Notes: generated from the letters alone by a model not told the origin. Shown: positions 1,150 through 9,239, counted from the stretch's first letter. The stretch is 64,000 bases of DNA from Bryobacterales bacterium (GCA_963422375.2 OY729428.2:3296001-3360000); one strand, 5' to 3'. Made by a program: numbers and translations.

Positions 1150-3291
1150 CTACTGGGGCTGCAGGCGATTCCTCAGCGCGAGGGCGGTGGGGTCGTCGGG
1201 CCGCACCTGCAGAAGCGCCTCAACGTTAGCGAGGGCGCTCGCCTTGTCACCCAGCGCCAGATGGGCCCTGGCTGCGTTCAGATAGGCCTGGGCGAGTTCC
1301 GGCTTGGCGCTACGGGCCTGCTCGAGCACGAGCAGGGCCTGCCGGTGCCGGCCGGTCTGGATGTACACGCCGCCGAGGTCGGTCAACGCCTCGGCGTACC
1401 CGTCGCGGAAGCGCACCGCCGCCCGCAGCGACTCCTCGGCCTTCGCGAAGTCTCCCTGCTGAGCGTGGACCAGGCCTAGGCTGTAGTGCGCCTCCGGGAA
1501 GTCCGGGTGCGCGGCGATCGCCGCGCCGAGGGACTGGGCGGCTTCCGCCCACGATCCGTTGCGCGCATGCACGATGCCGAGGTCGTGCAGCGCCTTGGCG
1601 TGGCTCGGCTCGATGCGGAGCGCCGCGCGCAGCGAGTCCACTGCCTCTTGCGTACGGCCCGCCTGCAAGTGCAGCCAGCCGAGGTTGTAGTGGACCGTGG
1701 CATTGTCCGGATCGGTATCCCGCGCGGCTTCCAGGGCGCGGCGGGCTGCCGCGAAGTCCCCTTGGCGCGCCGCGACGGTGCCCCAGACGCGCAGCGCGTC
1801 GGCATCTTCGGGAGCGCGTTCCAGCGCCGCCGACGCGGCGGCCCGCGCTTCGGGCAGGTCGCCGATCTCCGCCAGCGCGGTGGCGACATGGACCTGCGCC
1901 GCGCCTCCCGGCAGTCCCAGATCGACCGCCATGCGGTGCTTCTCGAGCGCTTCCGGCCAGCGCCCTTGCTCCGCGTACAAGCTCCCCAGCCGGTCGAGGC
2001 TCGCCGCATGGCGCGGGTGGACCGCGACAGCGTGCTCGAGCGCGGCCACAGCGTCCCCCCTGAGGCCGGCGGCGGCGTACGCGTCGGCCAGCTGGACCCA
2101 GTTCCGCTCGAAGCGGGTCACGTACGCGCGCCCCGGAAACGGCAGCCCGCGTTCCAGGAATTCGGTGTCGCTTTGCGGCCAGCGTTCCGCGTCGGACAGA
2201 ATGCGAGCCGCGGAAGTCCGTCCGAGATAAAGCTTGGCGATGCGGCCTTCCTCGTCGACGAAGAAGGTGGTGGGGATTGCCAGTTCGGCCGACTGGTCGA
2301 GAATGTGGCGGACCAGCAGGTCGAAGGCCGTCACGGTGTCCTCGTCGGGCAGCACCACGGGGAACGGCAGCTGCCGCTCGCGCACGTAGCGGCGGACGGT
2401 GTCGGCTTCGCCGGGCTCGTCTACGGAAACCAGCACCGGCAGCAGCGAGGCGCCTTCCAATGCCGCGCGATGCTCGGCGAAGTCGGCCAGCTCGGCTCGG
2501 CACGGAGCGCACCAGGTGGCCCAGAAGTTCAGTAGCAGCCGCTGGCCGCGGAAATGCCCCGGCTCGAGCTCGCCGCCGTCCAGAATGCGACCGCGCAAGC
2601 GCGGTGCCGGCATCGCCTCCGTCAGCCAAATGCCCGTCCGGGCCGGTTCGGGCCCGGTCGCGGGCTCCGCGGCGGACGAGGGAGCCGCGGCCGGCTCGGC
2701 GAAGAGCAGCGACCGGTAGTCGCTCTGCCCCTCCGTGATCGACACCAAGTGCCCGACCGGCACGCCGCGATGGCGGTCGACCGCGCCCGACGGCCAGTAG
2801 ATCGCCAGCTCGCGCACCTGGTCGTCGGCGCCCAGCCCGAAGTGAGCGGTCCGCGACGGCTGGGAGCGAAATCCCGAGCCGCTGCGCACCGACCGCGTGA
2901 GCCGGCGGCCGGCGGCCGTCTCCAGCACCAGCCGGGCGCCGACCGCGTCGCGGTTGCTCTTCGTACCCGCCAGTCGGACGGACACCGCCGCGCCCGACTC
3001 CGCGAGATCGTTGCGCAGCAGGCGCACCTGCGGGGAGTTGCGGCTGTTCAGGAGGATGTCCACATCCCCGTCGCGGTCGAAATCGAACGTCACGAATGCC
3101 CGGCCGTCCTGCGGGAAGTCCGCGCCAGCCACAGCGGACAGGTCGGCGAACGTGCCGTCGCCGCGATTCCAGTACAGGACGTTGCGTTCCTTGCCGCTGA
3201 GGCTGCCGTTGAGTCGGATCAGCCTGTAGAGCAGCGCCCAGCCGCGCTCGTAGCGCGAGGAGCGGGCTTGCGTTTCGGGCGACGACGACAC
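1150..3291 (-). CDS. C-terminal half: last FG-GAP blade, ASPIC/UnbV, TlpA redoxin (CxxC), TPR repeats
   Basis: DFDRDGDVD; SNRDAVGARL...GSGFRSQ...HFGLG...IYWPSG (ASPIC/UnbV); LNFWATWCAPCRAE; many TPR-type helices (HYNLG, HDLG, HYSLG). No clear Shine-Dalgarno before GTG 3291. Confidence 0.85.
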   Translation of the reverse strand: MSSSPETQARSSRYERGWALLYRLIRLNGSLSGKERNVLYWNRGDGTFADLSAVAGADFPQDGRAFVTFDFDRDGDVDILLNSRNSPQVRLLRNDLAESGAAVSVRLAGTKSNRDAVGARLVLETAAGRRLTRSVRSGSGFRSQPSRTAHFGLGADDQVRELAIYWPSGAVDRHRGVPVGHLVSITEGQSDYRSLLFAEPAAAPSSAAEPATGPEPARTGIWLTEAMPAPRLRGRILDGGELEPGHFRGQRLLLNFWATWCAPCRAELADFAEHRAALEGASLLPVLVSVDEPGEADTVRRYVRERQLPFPVVLPDEDTVTAFDLLVRHILDQSAELAIPTTFFVDEEGRIAKLYLGRTSAARILSDAERWPQSDTEFLERGLPFPGRAYVTRFERNWVQLADAYAAAGLRGDAVAALEHAVAVHPRHAASLDRLGSLYAEQGRWPEALEKHRMAVDLGLPGGAAQVHVATALAEIGDLPEARAAASAALERAPEDADALRVWGTVAARQGDFAAARRALEAARDTDPDNATVHYNLGWLHLQAGRTQEAVDSLRAALRIEPSHAKALHDLGIVHARNGSWAEAAQSLGAAIAAHPDFPEAHYSLGLVHAQQGDFAKAEESLRAAVRFRDGYAEALTDLGGVYIQTGRHRQALLVLEQARSAKPELAQAYLNAARAHLALGDKASALANVEALLQVRPDDPTALALRNRLQPQ

Positions 3292-5091
3292 GACCTGCCG
3301 CCAGAAGAAGCTTCAGAGGTCGGGCGCCCGCCCCTCGGTGCCGGTGACGAAGCCGTTGACGATGTAGATGTCGAGGTGACCGTCGTTGTCGAAGTCGACG
3401 AAGTCCGAGCACCACGCCCAGCGGCCCATCTCCACCCCGGTCGGCACGGTCACGTCGTCGAAGCTTCGGCCCTCGTTGCGGAACAGAGAGTTGCCCCGGG
3501 CGTGCCGCCGGTAGATGTCTGCCCTGGCTCCGGGGCTGTCCTCCTTGAAGTCGCGCTGCGCGGTGACCCGTCGCCCGGCCGACGACCACATGTTGCCGAA
3601 GTAGACATCCTCCAGCCCGTCGCCGTCGTAGTCTCCCAGCGCGACGCTCATGCCGGCCCCGTGGTCCTCGGTGCCCGCCTGCGCGGCAATATCGCGGAAC
3701 GTGGCGCCGCCGTTGCGGTAGAGATTCTTGCGTCCGAAGTCGTTGGCCACGAACAGGTCGGGCCAGCCGTCCTGGTCGTAGTCGCCCCAGGCGCAGGCGT
3801 GGCTGAAGCGGTCGTTGTTGTGGTCGAGGCCCGCGCTGGCGGTCGCGTCCGCGAAGGTGCCGTCGCCCTGGTTGCGGTAGAGGACGTTCGGCGGGCCGTT
3901 CGTCGCGTCATAGTAGGGGCGCGGCAGCTGGGAGGCTGCGTTCGGCCACAAGTACGCGGTCACGTACAAGTCCAGGAACCCGTCGCGGTCGTAGTCGCCG
4001 AGGCAGCCGCCCACCGCGCCCGGTTTGACGCCCAGCGGGAAGCCCTCGCGCGACAGGCTGAACCGGCCATGCCCGTCGTTGAGGAACAGCAGCGGCTGGC
4101 CCGCGGAGAGGATGAGGATCAGGTCCTGCGATCCGCTGTTGTCAATATCGGCGAAGAAGGCCGCCGAGGAGCCGTCGAGCGCGTCGAGCCCGGCGTCGGT
4201 GCTGGCGTCGGCGAACCGGCCGTCGCCCAAGTTGCGGAACAGGCGGTTGGGCAGGCCGCCAGGCTGGGTGAGGTAGAAGTCCTCCAAGCCGTCGCCGTCG
4301 TAGTCGCCGACAGCCAAGCCCTGCTGCCCGTAGACATCCATGCCGGATGCGGCATCCATGCGCGTCCGCCACACCTCGGTGCCGAAGCGCAGCTGCTGGC
4401 CGAACGAGGGGTTGTGCCCGAAGGCGGCCTGCGACACGTCGCTGAAGACGGCACTCCGCGCGCGGCTGCGCTGGCTGGGGCCGGCCTCGAGACCGGCCAG
4501 CAGCCACTTCCCCTCGGCCGGCTTGCGCCACTGGCAGCGCCACTGGGCGACCAACTGCTCGCGGAAGCCTCCGACCGCCTTGCCGGCCAGTTCGACACGC
4601 AGGTCGGTGAGCGCCGCGCCGGTGCCCCGAGACTCGATGCCGACGATCTTGAACTTGGCCCGGTCGACGGCGGCGAAGGGGGCGAGCAGCTCGTCGAGGC
4701 TCGCGGCAAACGTGCCAGCCTCCACGGTGGTGGCAGCGTGCGGGCTGCCGCGGTACGTCTCTAGCGCGCCGCGGGCATGGACGCGCTCCTCCGAAGCCGG
4801 TGCCAGCGGAGTTCCTCGGAACTCCGGGGCGATGCCGCCACGCCACCTCGGCGAGCTCGACACCAGGCCCGCGGCGATCTCGCCGAGTAGCGCCTCCAGC
4901 TCTCCCGCCTGCAGCTCGGAGAGCGAGCCGTCAGCGTCGGGGTCGACTTGTGCCAGCACCTGCTGGACAGGAGTGCCGCCGGACAACGCGTCCGCGCCCC
5001 GCAGCGGAGCGCTGGCGCCCTCGCCAAAGGACTGTGCTTGGCAGATTCCGGCCGCCGCGCAGATGCACAGCGCCACTAGGCCGTTCCGCAT
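1150..5091 (-). CDS. Predicted read-through/selenoprotein (~1313 aa): signal peptide, FG-GAP propeller with in-frame UGA (codon 593, nt 3313-3315), ASPIC/UnbV, TlpA-like thioredoxin, TPR array
   Basis: ORFs 3313..5394 and 1150..3291 share a frame, with 7 sense codons between the TGA and the downstream GTG: ...GRAPDL-TGA-SFFWRQVVSSSP. FG-GAP motifs occur on both sides of the TGA, and a SECIS-like hairpin follows it. Likely start is ATG 5091 (MRNGLVALCICAAAGICQA). Confidence 0.75.
3283..3303 (-). promoter_or_regulatory. Candidate bacterial SECIS element
   Basis: The mRNA reads UGA-AGCUUCUUC-UGGCGGCA-GGUCG-UGUCGUCG. This forms an 8-bp stem (with G-U pairs) and a 5-nt loop GGUCG starting 17 nt after the UGA. 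GCAGGUC is identical to the apical segment of the E. coli fdhF SECIS, at a 1-nt offset. Confidence 0.7.
3313..5091 (-). CDS. N-terminal half if UGA terminates: FG-GAP/VCBS repeat protein
   Basis: GDYDGDGLEDFY, GDYDRDGFLDLY, GDYDQDGWPDLF and DFDNDGHLDIY repeats; N-terminal signal peptide. Confidence 0.85.
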   Translation of the reverse strand: MRNGLVALCICAAAGICQAQSFGEGASAPLRGADALSGGTPVQQVLAQVDPDADGSLSELQAGELEALLGEIAAGLVSSSPRWRGGIAPEFRGTPLAPASEERVHARGALETYRGSPHAATTVEAGTFAASLDELLAPFAAVDRAKFKIVGIESRGTGAALTDLRVELAGKAVGGFREQLVAQWRCQWRKPAEGKWLLAGLEAGPSQRSRARSAVFSDVSQAAFGHNPSFGQQLRFGTEVWRTRMDAASGMDVYGQQGLAVGDYDGDGLEDFYLTQPGGLPNRLFRNLGDGRFADASTDAGLDALDGSSAAFFADIDNSGSQDLILILSAGQPLLFLNDGHGRFSLSREGFPLGVKPGAVGGCLGDYDRDGFLDLYVTAYLWPNAASQLPRPYYDATNGPPNVLYRNQGDGTFADATASAGLDHNNDRFSHACAWGDYDQDGWPDLFVANDFGRKNLYRNGGATFRDIAAQAGTEDHGAGMSVALGDYDGDGLEDVYFGNMWSSAGRRVTAQRDFKEDSPGARADIYRRHARGNSLFRNEGRSFDDVTVPTGVEMGRWAWCSDFVDFDNDGHLDIYIVNGFVTGTEGRAPDL

Positions 5092-5412
5092 CTCGAGTCC
5101 TTGCGCTGGCCAGGCAGCGTCGCAGCGGGCGCCTGCGGCAGGCACCCGCGCCATAAAGGTAGCAAGACAGGCGGCGGCACGCAACGGAGGGCAGGCGCTG
5201 GCCGGATCCCGCGGCACTTCGCGCCGAGACAGTGGGCCGCAGGCTTGATGCCTGCAGGTGGAGCAGGCGGCGCACCAAGCGAATCGGTCTCCCGAGACTG
5301 GGTCGGCGACGCTGCGATCCAGTCGGCAGGCGCGGCCGCGATAAGCGCGGTCATCGCCCGAGGCCGGAGCAACCGGCGAGGCCGACCGCAGCACCTACAC
5401 AACTCGCGATGC

Positions 5413-6350
5413 TCACATGCCCCACACTTCGATGGAGCCCCCCTGGATCGCCTCCGTGCGTCGGAAGATCTTGTCGGACCACGGTGAGCCCCGCTCGCCG
5501 AAGACTACCAAATGGCCCTCGTCGGCCCCCAGCCGGTCCATGTAGCTGGCCAGCTGGGCCGTGCCGTTCGCAACGGTCCGCTCCAGGGAGTCGCGGTGCA
5601 GCTTGCACTCGATGGCGATGCGCTGGTCGCCCTCCTCTCCGGGCCAGGCGACCAGCAGGTCCAGCCGCCCCCGCCCCAGGGCGTACTCCCGCTGGATGCG
5701 CCCGCCCCCGTTCGCCACCCGCTGCAGGAACGCCTGCAGCAGCAGGTGCGGCACCACCTCCAGATAGCCGGGCAGGTCCGCCAAGGTGTCGGCGCTCTCG
5801 CGGTAGTGCTGCCGGAACGCTTCCAGCAGCTTCGCCATGTCGAGGCCTCCCCCGGCGGTCGCGAAGCGGTATGCGCGCCGCTCCAGCAGCTTCTGATGGC
5901 TCGCCGTGAGCACGCGCGGCACCACCTCCGCGTAGATCGGGTTGGCGATGCGCGGCGGGTCGTCGGCCGCGAGCAGGCCCAGGTCCCTCGCGTATTCCAC
6001 GTCGTCGGAGTCGAATGCACGGTCGTCGCCGGCGAGCATGGGCCGGACGACGCGCGCCACGCGCTCGTCGCGCAGTCTCCTGCCGATCTGGTCGATGTGC
6101 GTCACCCGGCGCAGGATCAGGTCCTCCTGCGCTTCGAAGATGTCGCCCTCCGCGATCGCCCGCGAGCGGTCGCGCCCGGCCGGGCTGCGGAAGCAGGCCG
6201 CGTCGCACAGGGCGTTCACCAGCCACGGCTGCCCCCGGGTCTGGATCCTGCCTCGCCCACCGCCTCAGGGACTCGCGCAGCGCGATGGCCGGGCCCATCC
6301 GGTTCAGGACACCGAAGGCCGTCTGCTCCAGGAACTCGTCGCCGAAGGAT
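5413..6350 (-). pseudogene. AAA-ATPase / PD-(D/E)XK nuclease-domain protein, internally deleted
   Basis: The C-terminal part is intact (TRGQPWLVNALC...IANPIYAEVVPR...REYALGRGRLDLLV...IAIECK). An upstream piece in another frame (LRESLRRWA) joins it at ~6250, and the Walker B region is absent. Confidence 0.75.
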
Positions 6351-7099
6351 TCTATAAGTGAGCTTACCATGCCTGCCTGGTAAGCGCAATGGACTTTCAC
6401 ATGATCGGAAGATACATTTGTGAAATTCAGCGAGAAGCGCATCATTTGCTCGAGTTGAATTGTCACAATATGTGATTTAATGAAAAGTATATAGAAAGAA
6501 ATCATGGAAATAATGGGAAAATTGCTTTCATTCCAACCAGATCCAATATTAATACAATAAGAATCTGATATAAAACTCTCGAAATGCGCCTCGGGACCGC
6601 GGCCGGAGCCGGTGCCCGGCACCTTCCCGGAGGTCCCGGCCAGCGCCGGCCGACCCGCTCGCCGGGCCGAGGCAGCGCCGCCCGTGCCCCGGGCCGGCCC
6701 GCAGGTCGCGCGCGGCAGCGCCGGCGGCCGTCGCGCGGGAGGGTCCGCCAAGGCGCCGGCTAGGGGCCGCCCGCCACGCCCTCGCGACACGCAGCGGGAC
6801 GGGGATCCTGCGCCGCGTGCCGCGTCGTCGGCGACGGCGCGTCTCGCGCCGGACCCTGACTGACCGCCGCCCCCTCGCCCCGATGTCAGGTCCGACCGCC
6901 GTTGCCACCTCGGGCAGGGGTGTTGCTCGGCAAGGCCCCTGCGGGTGCCCGGGCCGTCGGCCGGACATCTCCGCTAGCCGGGCCCCTCGGTCCGCCGTCC
7001 GCCGACTCGCGTCAGGACACCGCCTCAAGTGCCTGAATCGAAAGGCCTTGCGGAGAATCCCACGGCCTCACCCCGGGACGGCCGTACTTGACCAATCCT

Positions 7100-7780
7100 T
7101 CGATGTACGGAATTCTGAGGCAGTTCTCGCCGGGAGCCCGGCGGCAGCCCCCAGCGGCGACGGCGGCGACTGCCTTGGAGTGGCATTCCACGCACTAGCC
7201 CACGTAATGCTCGCTGTCCTTCCGGGCGTCCGCGTGCAGTTCTTGGCTGCTGAGGCACGAGAGCGACCGGCTCTCGGTAAAGCAGCGGCTGGCCAGAAGG
7301 CCGAGCGGCTGGAAGCGCACGTTTAACGGATCGTCCCTTTCCGGGGCGGGCGAAGCCTTCCGGCGGCCCGGCAGCCGATGGCACTCGCCGCGTGCGGCGA
7401 TGATCCCCGCCGCGTCCATGCGGCCCGGGTTGCCGATTTGACCCCGGGGGCGCCCGCGCCGAGCGAACGTGCTCCCCGCCGGGGCCGTGGGAGCGCTCGT
7501 AGCGCACGCCGGGCTCGATCCCCCTAGCGAGGGCCCGGTAGCGAGCAGCGGCAGCGCCTGCTCGGCGCGTTCGAGGAGGCAGTAGCAGCGGGCGAACTGC
7601 AAGTGGGCCACGTTGCCGGAGAGCCCAGACGCAGGGCGTTCTCGAGGTTGAGCGCAGCTTCCTACGGTCGACCCAAGCGTAGGAGCACCTGCCCGAGCAG
7701 CGCGTACGCCGACGCGTAGCCGGAATGCCAATCGATGGCCGCTCGCACGGAGGCCTCAACTCTCGGCGCGGACTCGTTCG
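7100..7780 (-). pseudogene. Decayed TPR / multiheme cytochrome c protein
   Basis: Fragments in different frames: AYALLGQVLLRLGRP*EAALNLENALRLG (TPR-like) and NVRFQPLGLLASRCFTES...HYVG*CVECHSK (CxxCH), with stops and frameshifts. Confidence 0.55.
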
Positions 7781-7826
7781 AGCGAGGGCCTCCCGACAGT
7801 GCCACCGCTACCAGTACAATCGCGAG

Positions 7827-9239
7827 ATGCTTCAGATCGCTGTTGTGGCCTCGCTGCTCGGACTACTCGGGTCGCAGCACGTCCACGCGCAGGACCGAAC
7901 GAATTTCCTCCTTTTCCTCGTCGACGACCTTGGCTGGGCCGATCTCGGGATCTACGGGTCGGATCTTCACCGGACCCCTCGCATCGATGCATTCGCTCGC
8001 AACGCGATGCGCTTCACGAACGCATACGCGGCCTCGCCAGTGTGCAGCCCGACGAGAGCGTCGATTCTCACCGGCAAGCATCCCGCGAGGCTCGGCATGA
8101 CGGTGTGGCGGGAGGCCGCGAAGAATCCTCCCCTTCGCCGCAAGCTGGTTCCGCCGGTTACCCAGGACAGCCTGCCGCACGAGGAGGTCACGCTGGCCGA
8201 AGTTCTGCGCGGGGCCGGATACACGACCGCCCACGTCGGCAAGTGGCACCTCGGCACGGCCGAGTACTACCCGCAGACCCAGGGCTTCGACTACAACGTC
8301 GGCGGCACGCTCTGGGGCGCCCCGCAGACCTTCTTCTTCCCCTACGGGGGCACCGGGCCCTTCGCGGGCCTGCGATACGTCCCCCACTTGGGGGGCGGCC
8401 AGCCAGGCGAGTACCTGACGGACCGCCTGACCGACGAGGCGATTCGGATTCTGCGAAGGGAGCGCGGGAGACCCTTCTTCCTGCAGCTGGCATACCACAC
8501 GGTGCATACCCCCATCGAGGGCAAGCCGGAACTCGTGGCGCGCTACCGCGACCGGATTCAGGAGGGCATGCGCCACCGCAACGCGCACCTCGCCGCGATG
8601 GTCCATTCGCTTGACGAGAGTGTGGGCCGCGTGCTGGACGAGCTGGACTCGCTCGGCTTGGCGGGGCGCACCGTCGTCATCTTCACGTCCGATAACGGCG
8701 GCTACGTCAACAAGTTCGACGGCATGCAGGTCACGGACAACGCGCCCTTGCGCTCCGGCAAGGGCTCGCTCTACGAGGGAGGCATCCGCGTCCCCGCGTT
8801 GATTCGCTGGCCCGGCGTCACCTTACACGAATCGGCAAGCGACACGCCGATGAGCAGCGTCGACTACTACCGCACCATTCTTTCCATCGCCGGCCTCGCC
8901 GGGGACGCCGAGCACAACAGGGAGGTGGACGGATTCGATCTCGTTCGATTGCTGAGGGATCCCGGAACATCTCTCGACCGGGTCGCCCTCTTCTTTCACT
9001 ACCCGCACTACTACGCGACGACCTCGCCCGTGAGCGCCGTGCGGGCCGGCGACTGGAAGCTCCTGCGGTATTACGAAGACATGCGCGTCGAACTCTACGA
9101 CCTAGCGTCCGACCTCGGCGAGACTCGGGACCTGTCGTCGCAGAGACCCGAGATCGCGGCCGCCCTCCTCGGGCGGCTGGAAGCATGGTGGGAACTCGTC
9201 GACGCGCAACATCCCGCGCCCAATCCCGCCGCGCCCTAG
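7827..9239 (+). CDS. Secreted sulfatase (formylglycine type, S1)
   Basis: VDDLGW, CSPTRASILTG, GKWHLG, SDNGG and GSLYEGGIRVP motifs; signal peptide after ATG 7827. Confidence 0.93.
   Translation: MLQIAVVASLLGLLGSQHVHAQDRTNFLLFLVDDLGWADLGIYGSDLHRTPRIDAFARNAMRFTNAYAASPVCSPTRASILTGKHPARLGMTVWREAAKNPPLRRKLVPPVTQDSLPHEEVTLAEVLRGAGYTTAHVGKWHLGTAEYYPQTQGFDYNVGGTLWGAPQTFFFPYGGTGPFAGLRYVPHLGGGQPGEYLTDRLTDEAIRILRRERGRPFFLQLAYHTVHTPIEGKPELVARYRDRIQEGMRHRNAHLAAMVHSLDESVGRVLDELDSLGLAGRTVVIFTSDNGGYVNKFDGMQVTDNAPLRSGKGSLYEGGIRVPALIRWPGVTLHESASDTPMSSVDYYRTILSIAGLAGDAEHNREVDGFDLVRLLRDPGTSLDRVALFFHYPHYYATTSPVSAVRAGDWKLLRYYEDMRVELYDLASDLGETRDLSSQRPEIAAALLGRLEAWWELVDAQHPAPNPAAP

Follow-up and report, generated by a model that had tools for sequence, protein, structure and literature searches.

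Two adjacent open reading frames (ORFs) on the minus strand of a Bryobacterales bacterium genome raise the question of whether they are separate genes or the two parts of one gene, joined by an internal UGA codon that specifies selenocysteine (Sec). They lie in a stretch of 64,000 nucleotides (GCA_963422375.2 OY729428.2:3296001-3360000), here called the window, in whose coordinates all positions are given; features are on the minus strand unless stated otherwise. A preliminary description of the window had proposed that the two ORFs form a hidden selenoprotein gene of approximately 1313 codons. In the ORF listing of the window both ORFs, 3313..5394 and 1150..3291, are in one common frame, and translation of 5394-1150 with TGA=U confirms the proposal, giving one open frame with a single TGA, ...NGFVTGTEGRAPDL-U-SFFWRQVVSSSP... 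(GRAPDL-U-SFFWRQVV). This TGA (3315-3313) is residue 694 when counted from the GTG at 5394 (the long ORF, or P0001, whose numbering is used below) and residue 593 when counted from the ATG at 5091 (precursor numbering). The next stop after it is the TAG at 1152-1150, the end of the gene. A single TGA among the 1313 codons, with TAG as the terminal stop, indicates site-specific recoding and not an altered genetic code. As discussed below, the UGA is very probably decoded as Sec by SelB at an in-frame hairpin, and the gene is, as judged from comparison with its homologues, recoded and not the product of a nonsense mutation.

Conservation of the UGA codon and of the hairpin that follows it

The UGA (3313..3315) is assigned to Sec on the basis of homologous loci that have TGA at the same codon. 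A six-frame search of 40 related genomes found TGA at exactly this codon in all of the 20 best loci fetched, among which the orthologues have 56-71% identity and the paralogues 40-43%. In a sample of 301 genomes of the class, 15 genomes have a TGA form, and all 18 further loci that were fetched have TGA at the site. A pattern scan of named genomes (DxDxDG blade motif, gap, TGA-[S/T]-x-F-W-R(CG)) gave at least 120 stretches, from which 80 loci were fetched; 69 of the 80 proved to be genuine homologues in which the stop falls opposite residue 694. These belong to the Acidobacteriota (39), Planctomycetota (17), Verrucomicrobiota (6), Latescibacterota (3) and Myxococcota/Deltaproteobacteria (3), with one unclassified, for at least five phyla in all. 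The remaining 11 loci were rejected as chance pattern matches with no homology spanning the site. At least 107 further homologous loci (20 + 18 + 69) therefore have TGA at the same codon; one of the loci examined, from Bryobacterales (L118), does not differ from the orthologue of a genome in the same genus as the window, which assigns the window to Bryobacterales. The conservation predicted for Acidobacteriota and Planctomycetota was found in many genomes, and it extends to other phyla.

Both sides of the TGA are under similar constraint. The ratio of nonsynonymous to synonymous substitution rates (dN/dS) is 0.09-0.21 on both sides in eight informative orthologue pairs (a ninth pair is identical). 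A contig from another study, approximately 98.8% identical to the window, covers the site with the TGA unchanged, so the codon is also present in independent data. Among 40 listed of the 65 variants of this related strain, 22 are synonymous, 18 are non-synonymous and none creates a stop. Equal and low dN/dS in both halves and the lack of another internal stop agree with the earlier statement that neither half shows other decay.

Three further loci bear on the distribution of the TGA form. The genome has a second intact Sec paralogue (L098, G000:C1:577700-583500), approximately 41% identical to the window gene, with which it shares the TGA and the hairpin; it also has a WCPPC motif. It also has a decayed copy on another contig (L099, G000:C1:941900-947900), 65-82% identical to the window gene, which keeps the TGA and the hairpin and aligns in several frames; no alignment was returned for query residues 913-1035, the CxxC region. 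A distant member (L100, G121:C12:29700-35300) has two in-frame TGA codons, one at the usual site and another 35 codons upstream. The TGA at the usual site precedes a perfect 6-bp stem capped by a GGUC tetraloop, which is in a shifted register when folded by eye; the upstream TGA may be a second Sec codon or a sign of decay.

The 30 nt after the TGA are nearly invariant among TGA forms, synonymous sites included. This segment contains a hairpin (3285..3301) with the features of a selenocysteine insertion sequence (SECIS). Its 6-bp stem (GCGGCA/UGUCGU) pairs nt 15-20 with nt 26-31 counted from the U of UGA, as predicted by Alifold and by pair counts, and its apical loop (GGUCG) begins 17 nt past the UGA. 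Pair statistics were taken from 88 sequences, 80 of them distinct. In the 80 distinct sequences 86% of cells are paired, compared with 25-69% when the partners are slid, and the covariation score of 0.266 (0.129 when shuffled) was reached by none of 500 shuffles. Six standard pair types occur at pair 18:28 (GU 23, CG 19, UA 13, AU 6, GC 4, UG 2, other 13), where we read the 'other' cells as mostly hairpins whose register is offset by one or two bases; at pair 20:26, AU is replaced by GC in five sequences. Of the two positions, 18 falls on the wobble base of an Arg codon and 28 on the first base of a Ser, Thr, Ala or Pro codon. Because no protein constraint ties a wobble base to the first base of another codon, the link between them is at the RNA level.

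The hairpin is also specific to TGA forms. All six pairs form in 60 of 80 TGA forms, in 6 of 15 forms with Cys at the site and in 1 of 30 forms with another residue (1 of 27 without L068, L071 and L082, which come from genomes flagged unpublished). The six Cys forms with all pairs (L037, L039, L042, L043, L046 and L047) are paralogues from related genomes, and their hairpin may be a SECIS left over from a recent change of Sec to Cys. Bacterial SECIS elements are located approximately 16-37 nt after the UGA and have a G (GU) in the apical loop. The position of the hairpin and its GGU loop presumably correspond to those of the SelB-binding SECIS of E. coli fdhF. This covarying hairpin with a GGU loop is the candidate for the SECIS that had been anticipated 3' of the UGA. 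As it lies over the conserved SFFWRQVV codons, the covariation takes the form of a wobble base paired with a first base, and this signature could be used to find other hidden selenoproteins.

Decoding of the UGA codon

The genes required for Sec insertion are present. The genome encodes a tRNA-Sec (selC; 73.9 bits, anticodon TCA), SelA (418 bits) and SelD (299.7 bits), and the SelB wing domain is matched, all above curated cut-offs; the check for selA, selB, selC and selD that had been suggested is thereby answered for all four. In the class sample a Sec marker is found in 15 of 15 TGA-form genomes and SelA in 14 of 15. The genome that lacks SelA (G261, in 400 contigs) has a tRNA-Sec at 70.6 bits. 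SelA is present in 239 of the 301 genomes of the class, and its presence therefore discriminates poorly.

The residue that replaces Sec depends on the group of homologues. Of 20 no-stop paralogues from the same genus, 15 have a Cys codon (TGC or TGT) at the aligned position, two have Asn, and Met, Glu and Gly are found in one each. In 107 close single-chain homologues from the database (49-57% identity), it is Asn (92), Ser (7), Ala (3), Asp (2), Gly (2) or Glu (1). On their own, the database homologues would make a nonsense mutation seem likely, but only stop-free forms can enter a protein database. The expectation of Cys in relatives was borne out in 15 of 20 no-stop paralogues; most database relatives have Asn, Ser or Gly instead. 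All 15 Cys forms have a second Cys 31 residues past the first (GWNCLN), and the six whose N-termini were examined have a twin-arginine-like motif. One of the Cys forms, a protein of 1176 aa, is a paralogue from the same genome, L221:974-4504 (+) (G000:C2, approximately 1.9 Mb from the window). Besides the Cys at the site and the second one 31 residues further along, it has an N-terminus of the twin-arginine-like type (GRREFLAALAAGG) and no CxxC; it is the one Cys form that was scanned with Pfam, and no redoxin domain was found in it.

Public annotation treats the gene differently. A GTG at 3289..3291, which is within the hairpin and encodes Val702, is used by gene callers as the start of a separate 'TPR/peroxiredoxin' gene, as seen in the ORF listing and in database proteins. 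Among the matches listed in a search with the C-terminal ORF are 54 database proteins of 690-745 residues, all with CxxC. The GTG eight codons past the TGA is the start of 48 of them (M/V-S-x-S, mostly MSSSPE...), while five begin at a later Met and one begins a codon earlier; where they are named, it is as 'tetratricopeptide repeat protein' or 'TPR repeat protein/peroxiredoxin'. In the window this GTG, the first possible start of the downstream ORF, falls within the conserved SFFWRQVV stretch and lacks a Shine-Dalgarno sequence at a usable distance, in agreement with the earlier remark that the ORF lacks a clear ribosome-binding site. The family, found in at least five phyla, is thus stored in public annotation as 'FG-GAP protein' and 'TPR/peroxiredoxin' fragments. 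Reading it as a single protein would correct many gene models and add to the selenoproteomes of Acidobacteriota, Planctomycetota and Verrucomicrobiota from soil and marine habitats.

The same annotation speaks for two real genes, with termination at the UGA and independent synthesis of the ASPIC/thioredoxin/tetratricopeptide repeat (TPR) part from GTG 3291, perhaps followed by assembly of the pieces. The GTG is conserved, and 48 of the 54 listed C-terminal-half proteins begin there. It is, however, without a ribosome-binding site and is part of both the hairpin and a conserved Val codon, and the peptide SFFWRQV, encoded by the seven codons that separate UGA from GTG, is conserved in Sec, Cys and Asn forms. 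A cut at this point, inside the propeller, would put the last blade on the second piece, and 122 homologues with a sense codon at the site are single chains. Two separate genes are accordingly very improbable. A recent nonsense mutation, a pseudogene or a sequencing error is scarcely credible: a single stop in an otherwise intact gene, in a genome that also has the decayed paralogue L099, would suit such an origin, yet the same TGA is present in at least 107 other loci across phyla, dN/dS is equally low on both sides and the TGA is unchanged in the contig from the other study.

Recoding might also occur without selenium, with the hairpin stalling or recoding translation and a near-cognate tRNA (Trp, Cys, Arg or Gly) supplying the residue. 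The site tolerates many residues, and the nearest non-Sec relatives have Gly or Glu there (including the match given in Table S9 of Kim et al. 2016, PLoS One, PMC4807772), both of which would agree with such read-through. If any residue sufficed, a sense codon should often replace the UGA, yet the state of the site changes only twice on the tree described below. Sister paralogues have Cys at the site, and the hairpin has the position and the GGU loop expected of a SelB-binding SECIS. The Sec marker in 15 of 15 TGA-form genomes also speaks against it, weakly, as SelA is so widespread in the class. Selenium-free read-through is considered improbable.

Decoding of the UGA as Sec by SelB has its own difficulties. 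No Cys adjoins the Sec, and Cys is at the site in none of the 107 close database homologues. The range of residues that the site seems to tolerate is unusual for a catalytic Sec. The hairpin matches no family in an Rfam scan of 3150-3400 (E-values up to 10), and the folding energy of the 60-115 nt after the UGA, in a G+C-rich context, is no better than that of shuffled sequences (z 0.6-0.9). All of these count against Sec. The locus nevertheless has the set of features of bacterial SelB/SECIS-dependent selenoproteins, namely a conserved UGA, Cys homologues, a hairpin, and selA, selB, selC and selD.

Domain organization and proposed function of the predicted selenoprotein

The whole predicted selenoprotein gene (1150..5091; 1313 codons with one internal UGA, as obtained from the ORFs and their translation) extends from an ATG at 5091-5089 to the TAG at 1152-1150. 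This ATG is the likely start: alignments to orthologues start at residues 94-106 of the long ORF, that is, at ATG 5091, and indels in the related strain are confined to the region upstream of 5091. A Shine-Dalgarno-like AAGGA (5098..5102) is located six bases 5' of the ATG, and the first codons encode a predicted Sec-type signal peptide, MRNGLVALCICAAAGICQA (5035..5091), followed by QS. Both were identified by eye; the N-termini of orthologues are similarly hydrophobic.

Pfam bears out the combination of propeller, ASPIC/UnbV, thioredoxin (WCAPC) and TPR domains that had been described. It finds six FG-GAP stretches (PF13517, 154.5 bits), UnbV_ASPIC at residues 817-882 (PF07593, 59.6 bits; E-value: 2.7e-16), AhpC-TSA/Redoxin at 930-1061 and TPR at 1130-1412. 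The FG-GAP beta-propeller (3025..4323; six FG-GAP_3 stretches in Pfam, with AlphaFold and Foldseek in agreement) is broken by the Sec-bearing insert (3175..3351). This insert of approximately 45 residues, which contains the TGA, follows the blade ...DFDNDGHLDIYIVNG and precedes the blade ...NVLYWNRGDGTF...FDFDRDGDVDILL, confirming that the UGA falls between two FG-GAP motifs; by alignment and AlphaFold it consists of a loop, the helix U-SFFWRQVV and a second helix. The UnbV_ASPIC domain (2749..2946) is aligned to residues 355-483 of CRTAC1. It is followed by a TlpA/ResA-like thioredoxin-fold domain (2212..2607; AhpC-TSA and Redoxin in Pfam, also matched by Foldseek) with the redox motif CAPC (2500..2511; C962 and C965, within WCAPC at 961-965), which sequence and AlphaFold place at the start of a helix. 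C-terminal TPR repeats (1159..2007) complete the Pfam assignment.

The AlphaFold model covers residues 329-1079 and was built from a 92-row alignment of 13 recoded references and 79 database proteins (mean predicted local distance difference test score 90.8, predicted template modelling score 0.82). In the model, a strand (675-680) leads through a loop to helix 694-702, with Sec as its first residue, and then to helix 713-727. The placement of Sec outside any UxxC motif, in a propeller insert, is thus supported, with the refinement that it opens a helix; C962 is just ahead of helix 963-974. The best solved match in Foldseek is murine CRTAC1 (9etn_A; E-value: 9.4e-28, template modelling score 0.68 on the target), which is also the only PDB relative found by sequence (E-value: 3.6e-22, 20% identity). 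With a propeller followed by UnbV_ASPIC, the protein belongs to the CRTAC1/ASPIC-UnbV family by Pfam, sequence and fold. The thioredoxin-like part matches DsbF (4pq1), ResA (2f9s), TlpA (1jfu) and Etrx2 (2yp6) and, as in TlpA/ResA/DsbE proteins, combines a thioredoxin fold with a CxxC at a helix start. Its scores remain below the NCBIfam equivalog cut-offs (ResA 54.9 vs 170, StoA 54.6 vs 210, TlpA 48.7 vs 230, DsbE 37.1 vs 123), and the likeness to TlpA/ResA/DsbE is at the domain level only. Identity with the ResA-like WAxxUGC selenoprotein (NCBIfam NF041054) was considered and rejected: the score is 40.2 bits against a cut-off of 300, the protein has two Cys in its redox motif (WCAPC), and its Sec is 267 residues upstream of this motif.

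In counts, the presence of the CxxC follows that of Sec. In members with at least 330 residues after the site, and with CxxC counted 200-340 residues downstream of it, the motif occurs in 97 of 101 Sec forms and in none of the 15 Cys forms; among forms with another residue it occurs in 0 of 23 from the loci (0 of 20 without the three flagged loci) and in 4 of 104 from the database, which gives 4 of 142 non-Sec forms overall. These counts are inflated because of kinship. On an unrooted tree of 239 members, computed with the site and the thioredoxin part excluded, a non-Sec clade (119 other forms and 15 Cys forms) is nested within successive Sec+CxxC branches with supports of 83-99, and a small neighbouring clade has six non-Sec forms, four of which keep CxxC. 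Several points weaken the association: four of the 101 Sec forms are without any CxxC, four non-Sec proteins retain one, and the site changes state only twice on the tree, leaving two pairs for an independent-pairs sign test (p 0.5). Because there are only two independent transitions, the coupling is a lead, and co-evolution is not claimed. The idea that the WCAPC domain redox-cycles the Sec agrees with the counts and is, with those two transitions, unproven. Redox-active Cys or Sec is usually placed as the first residue of a helix, and a Sec in this position, found together with a CxxC domain, suggests redox chemistry.

The proposed model for synthesis and function of the protein is as follows. 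One gene would give one exported selenoprotein of 1313 residues. The UGA at 3315-3313 would be decoded by SelB and tRNA-Sec, directed by the hairpin with its GGU-bearing loop; when selenium or SelB is limiting, translation would stop at the UGA to leave a truncated propeller. The Sec, at the helix start in the propeller insert, would be the catalytic nucleophile of an extracytoplasmic oxidoreductase. Once oxidised, it may form a selenenylsulfide with the tethered CxxC domain, which in turn would be re-reduced by a membrane electron carrier of the CcdA/DsbD type. One DsbD_TM gene is present in the genome, and no redox partner is found among the neighbouring genes, which are an FG-GAP gene, ORFs without Pfam match and a sulfatase gene. 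An exported oxidoreductase whose Sec nucleophile is recycled by a tethered TlpA-like CxxC is possible and is proposed tentatively; if correct, it would represent a new class of extracytoplasmic selenium oxidoreductase. A further and rather doubtful suggestion is that the CRTAC1/ASPIC-UnbV family began as an exported selenoenzyme of this kind, with a catalytic Sec in the propeller recycled by a TlpA-like CxxC fed by CcdA/DsbD, and that the Asn, Ser and Gly forms without CxxC are descendants that lack both redox centres. That animal CRTAC1, which is absent from the tree, is a de-selenised relative is a conjecture.

The surroundings of the gene are as follows. The next gene downstream, on the same strand (1-873), encodes another FG-GAP repeat protein and runs off the window start. 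Upstream are three ORFs without Pfam match (5351-6790 (-), 5512-6357 (+) and 7025-7759 (-)) and a sulfatase gene at 7725-9239 (+). Within the gene, the contigs of four public runs are interrupted or accumulate at 3280-3430 and 3700-4000, where word depth reaches as much as 20x that of the flanks. The likely reason is that the near-invariant hairpin and blade motifs are common to paralogues and other organisms; shared motifs of this sort could make such genes hard to assemble.

Comparison with known systems

The closest prior record is that of Kim et al. (2016, PLoS One, PMC4807772), whose Table S9 lists four planctomycete genes as selenoprotein candidates. In all four, the annotation divides the gene at an in-frame UGA into two neighbouring ones; a SECIS was predicted by bSECISearch in three of the four, and the closest non-Sec match has Gly at the site. 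By the descriptions in the table, these candidates, which are given by IMG identifiers only, have the same domain make-up as the window gene. Planctomycetota are also represented in the present set (17 of the 69 homologues among the 80 fetched). As far as Table S9 and the main text of PMC4807772 go, the record differs in giving no analysis of conservation or of covariation in the hairpin and in mentioning neither Cys forms nor a fused CxxC domain nor members outside the Planctomycetes, and the terms ASPIC, FG-GAP and UnbV are absent from that main text. The family is not named in the text and four supplements of deep-Sep (PMC12013277), in the text of the 2026 AEM review (PMC13188914), or in the text and one long, possibly incomplete supplement of BSepDB (PMC13326102); nor, by narrower terms, is it named in the texts of ISME J 2016 (PMC5029168) and Genome Biol 2006 (PMC1794560).

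A literature search returned no relevant paper linking selenoprotein with FG-GAP, or selenocysteine with ASPIC or CRTAC1. The preliminary description knew of no characterised family and allowed that it might already be catalogued. It is absent from the catalogues searched, and the four planctomycete candidates were already in print. It is well supported, from sequence comparisons, that this is a selenoprotein family that has appeared in print only as a supplement line, and that it would use the known bacterial decoding mechanism.

That mechanism is typified by E. coli fdhF, with which the window gene shares an in-frame UGA, a hairpin in the coding sequence, a GGU loop, selA-selD and Cys homologues. 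Unlike in the fdhF type, the predicted Sec neither binds the metal of a molybdopterin enzyme nor forms part of a UxxC or CxxU motif; it is a lone helix-start residue in an exported propeller protein. CRTAC1 (9etn) has the FG-GAP propeller and UnbV_ASPIC in common with the window protein but has no thioredoxin-like part, TPR part or Sec, and the Sec insert was left unaligned by HMMER. To our knowledge, the biochemical function of CRTAC1 is unsettled, and none has been established for bacterial ASPIC/UnbV proteins.

TlpA, ResA, DsbF and Etrx2 (1jfu, 4txo, 2f9s, 4pq1 and 2yp6) share the fold of residues 930-1061, with WCxPC at a helix start. Proteins of the TlpA/ResA type reduce specific exported partners with electrons from CcdA/DsbD. 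They are free lipoproteins, whereas here the corresponding domain is part of a 1313-residue chain and its partner, the Sec of the same chain, is only proposed. An analogy for such a tethered reductase and catalytic domain is provided by fused thioredoxin-methionine sulfoxide reductase proteins.

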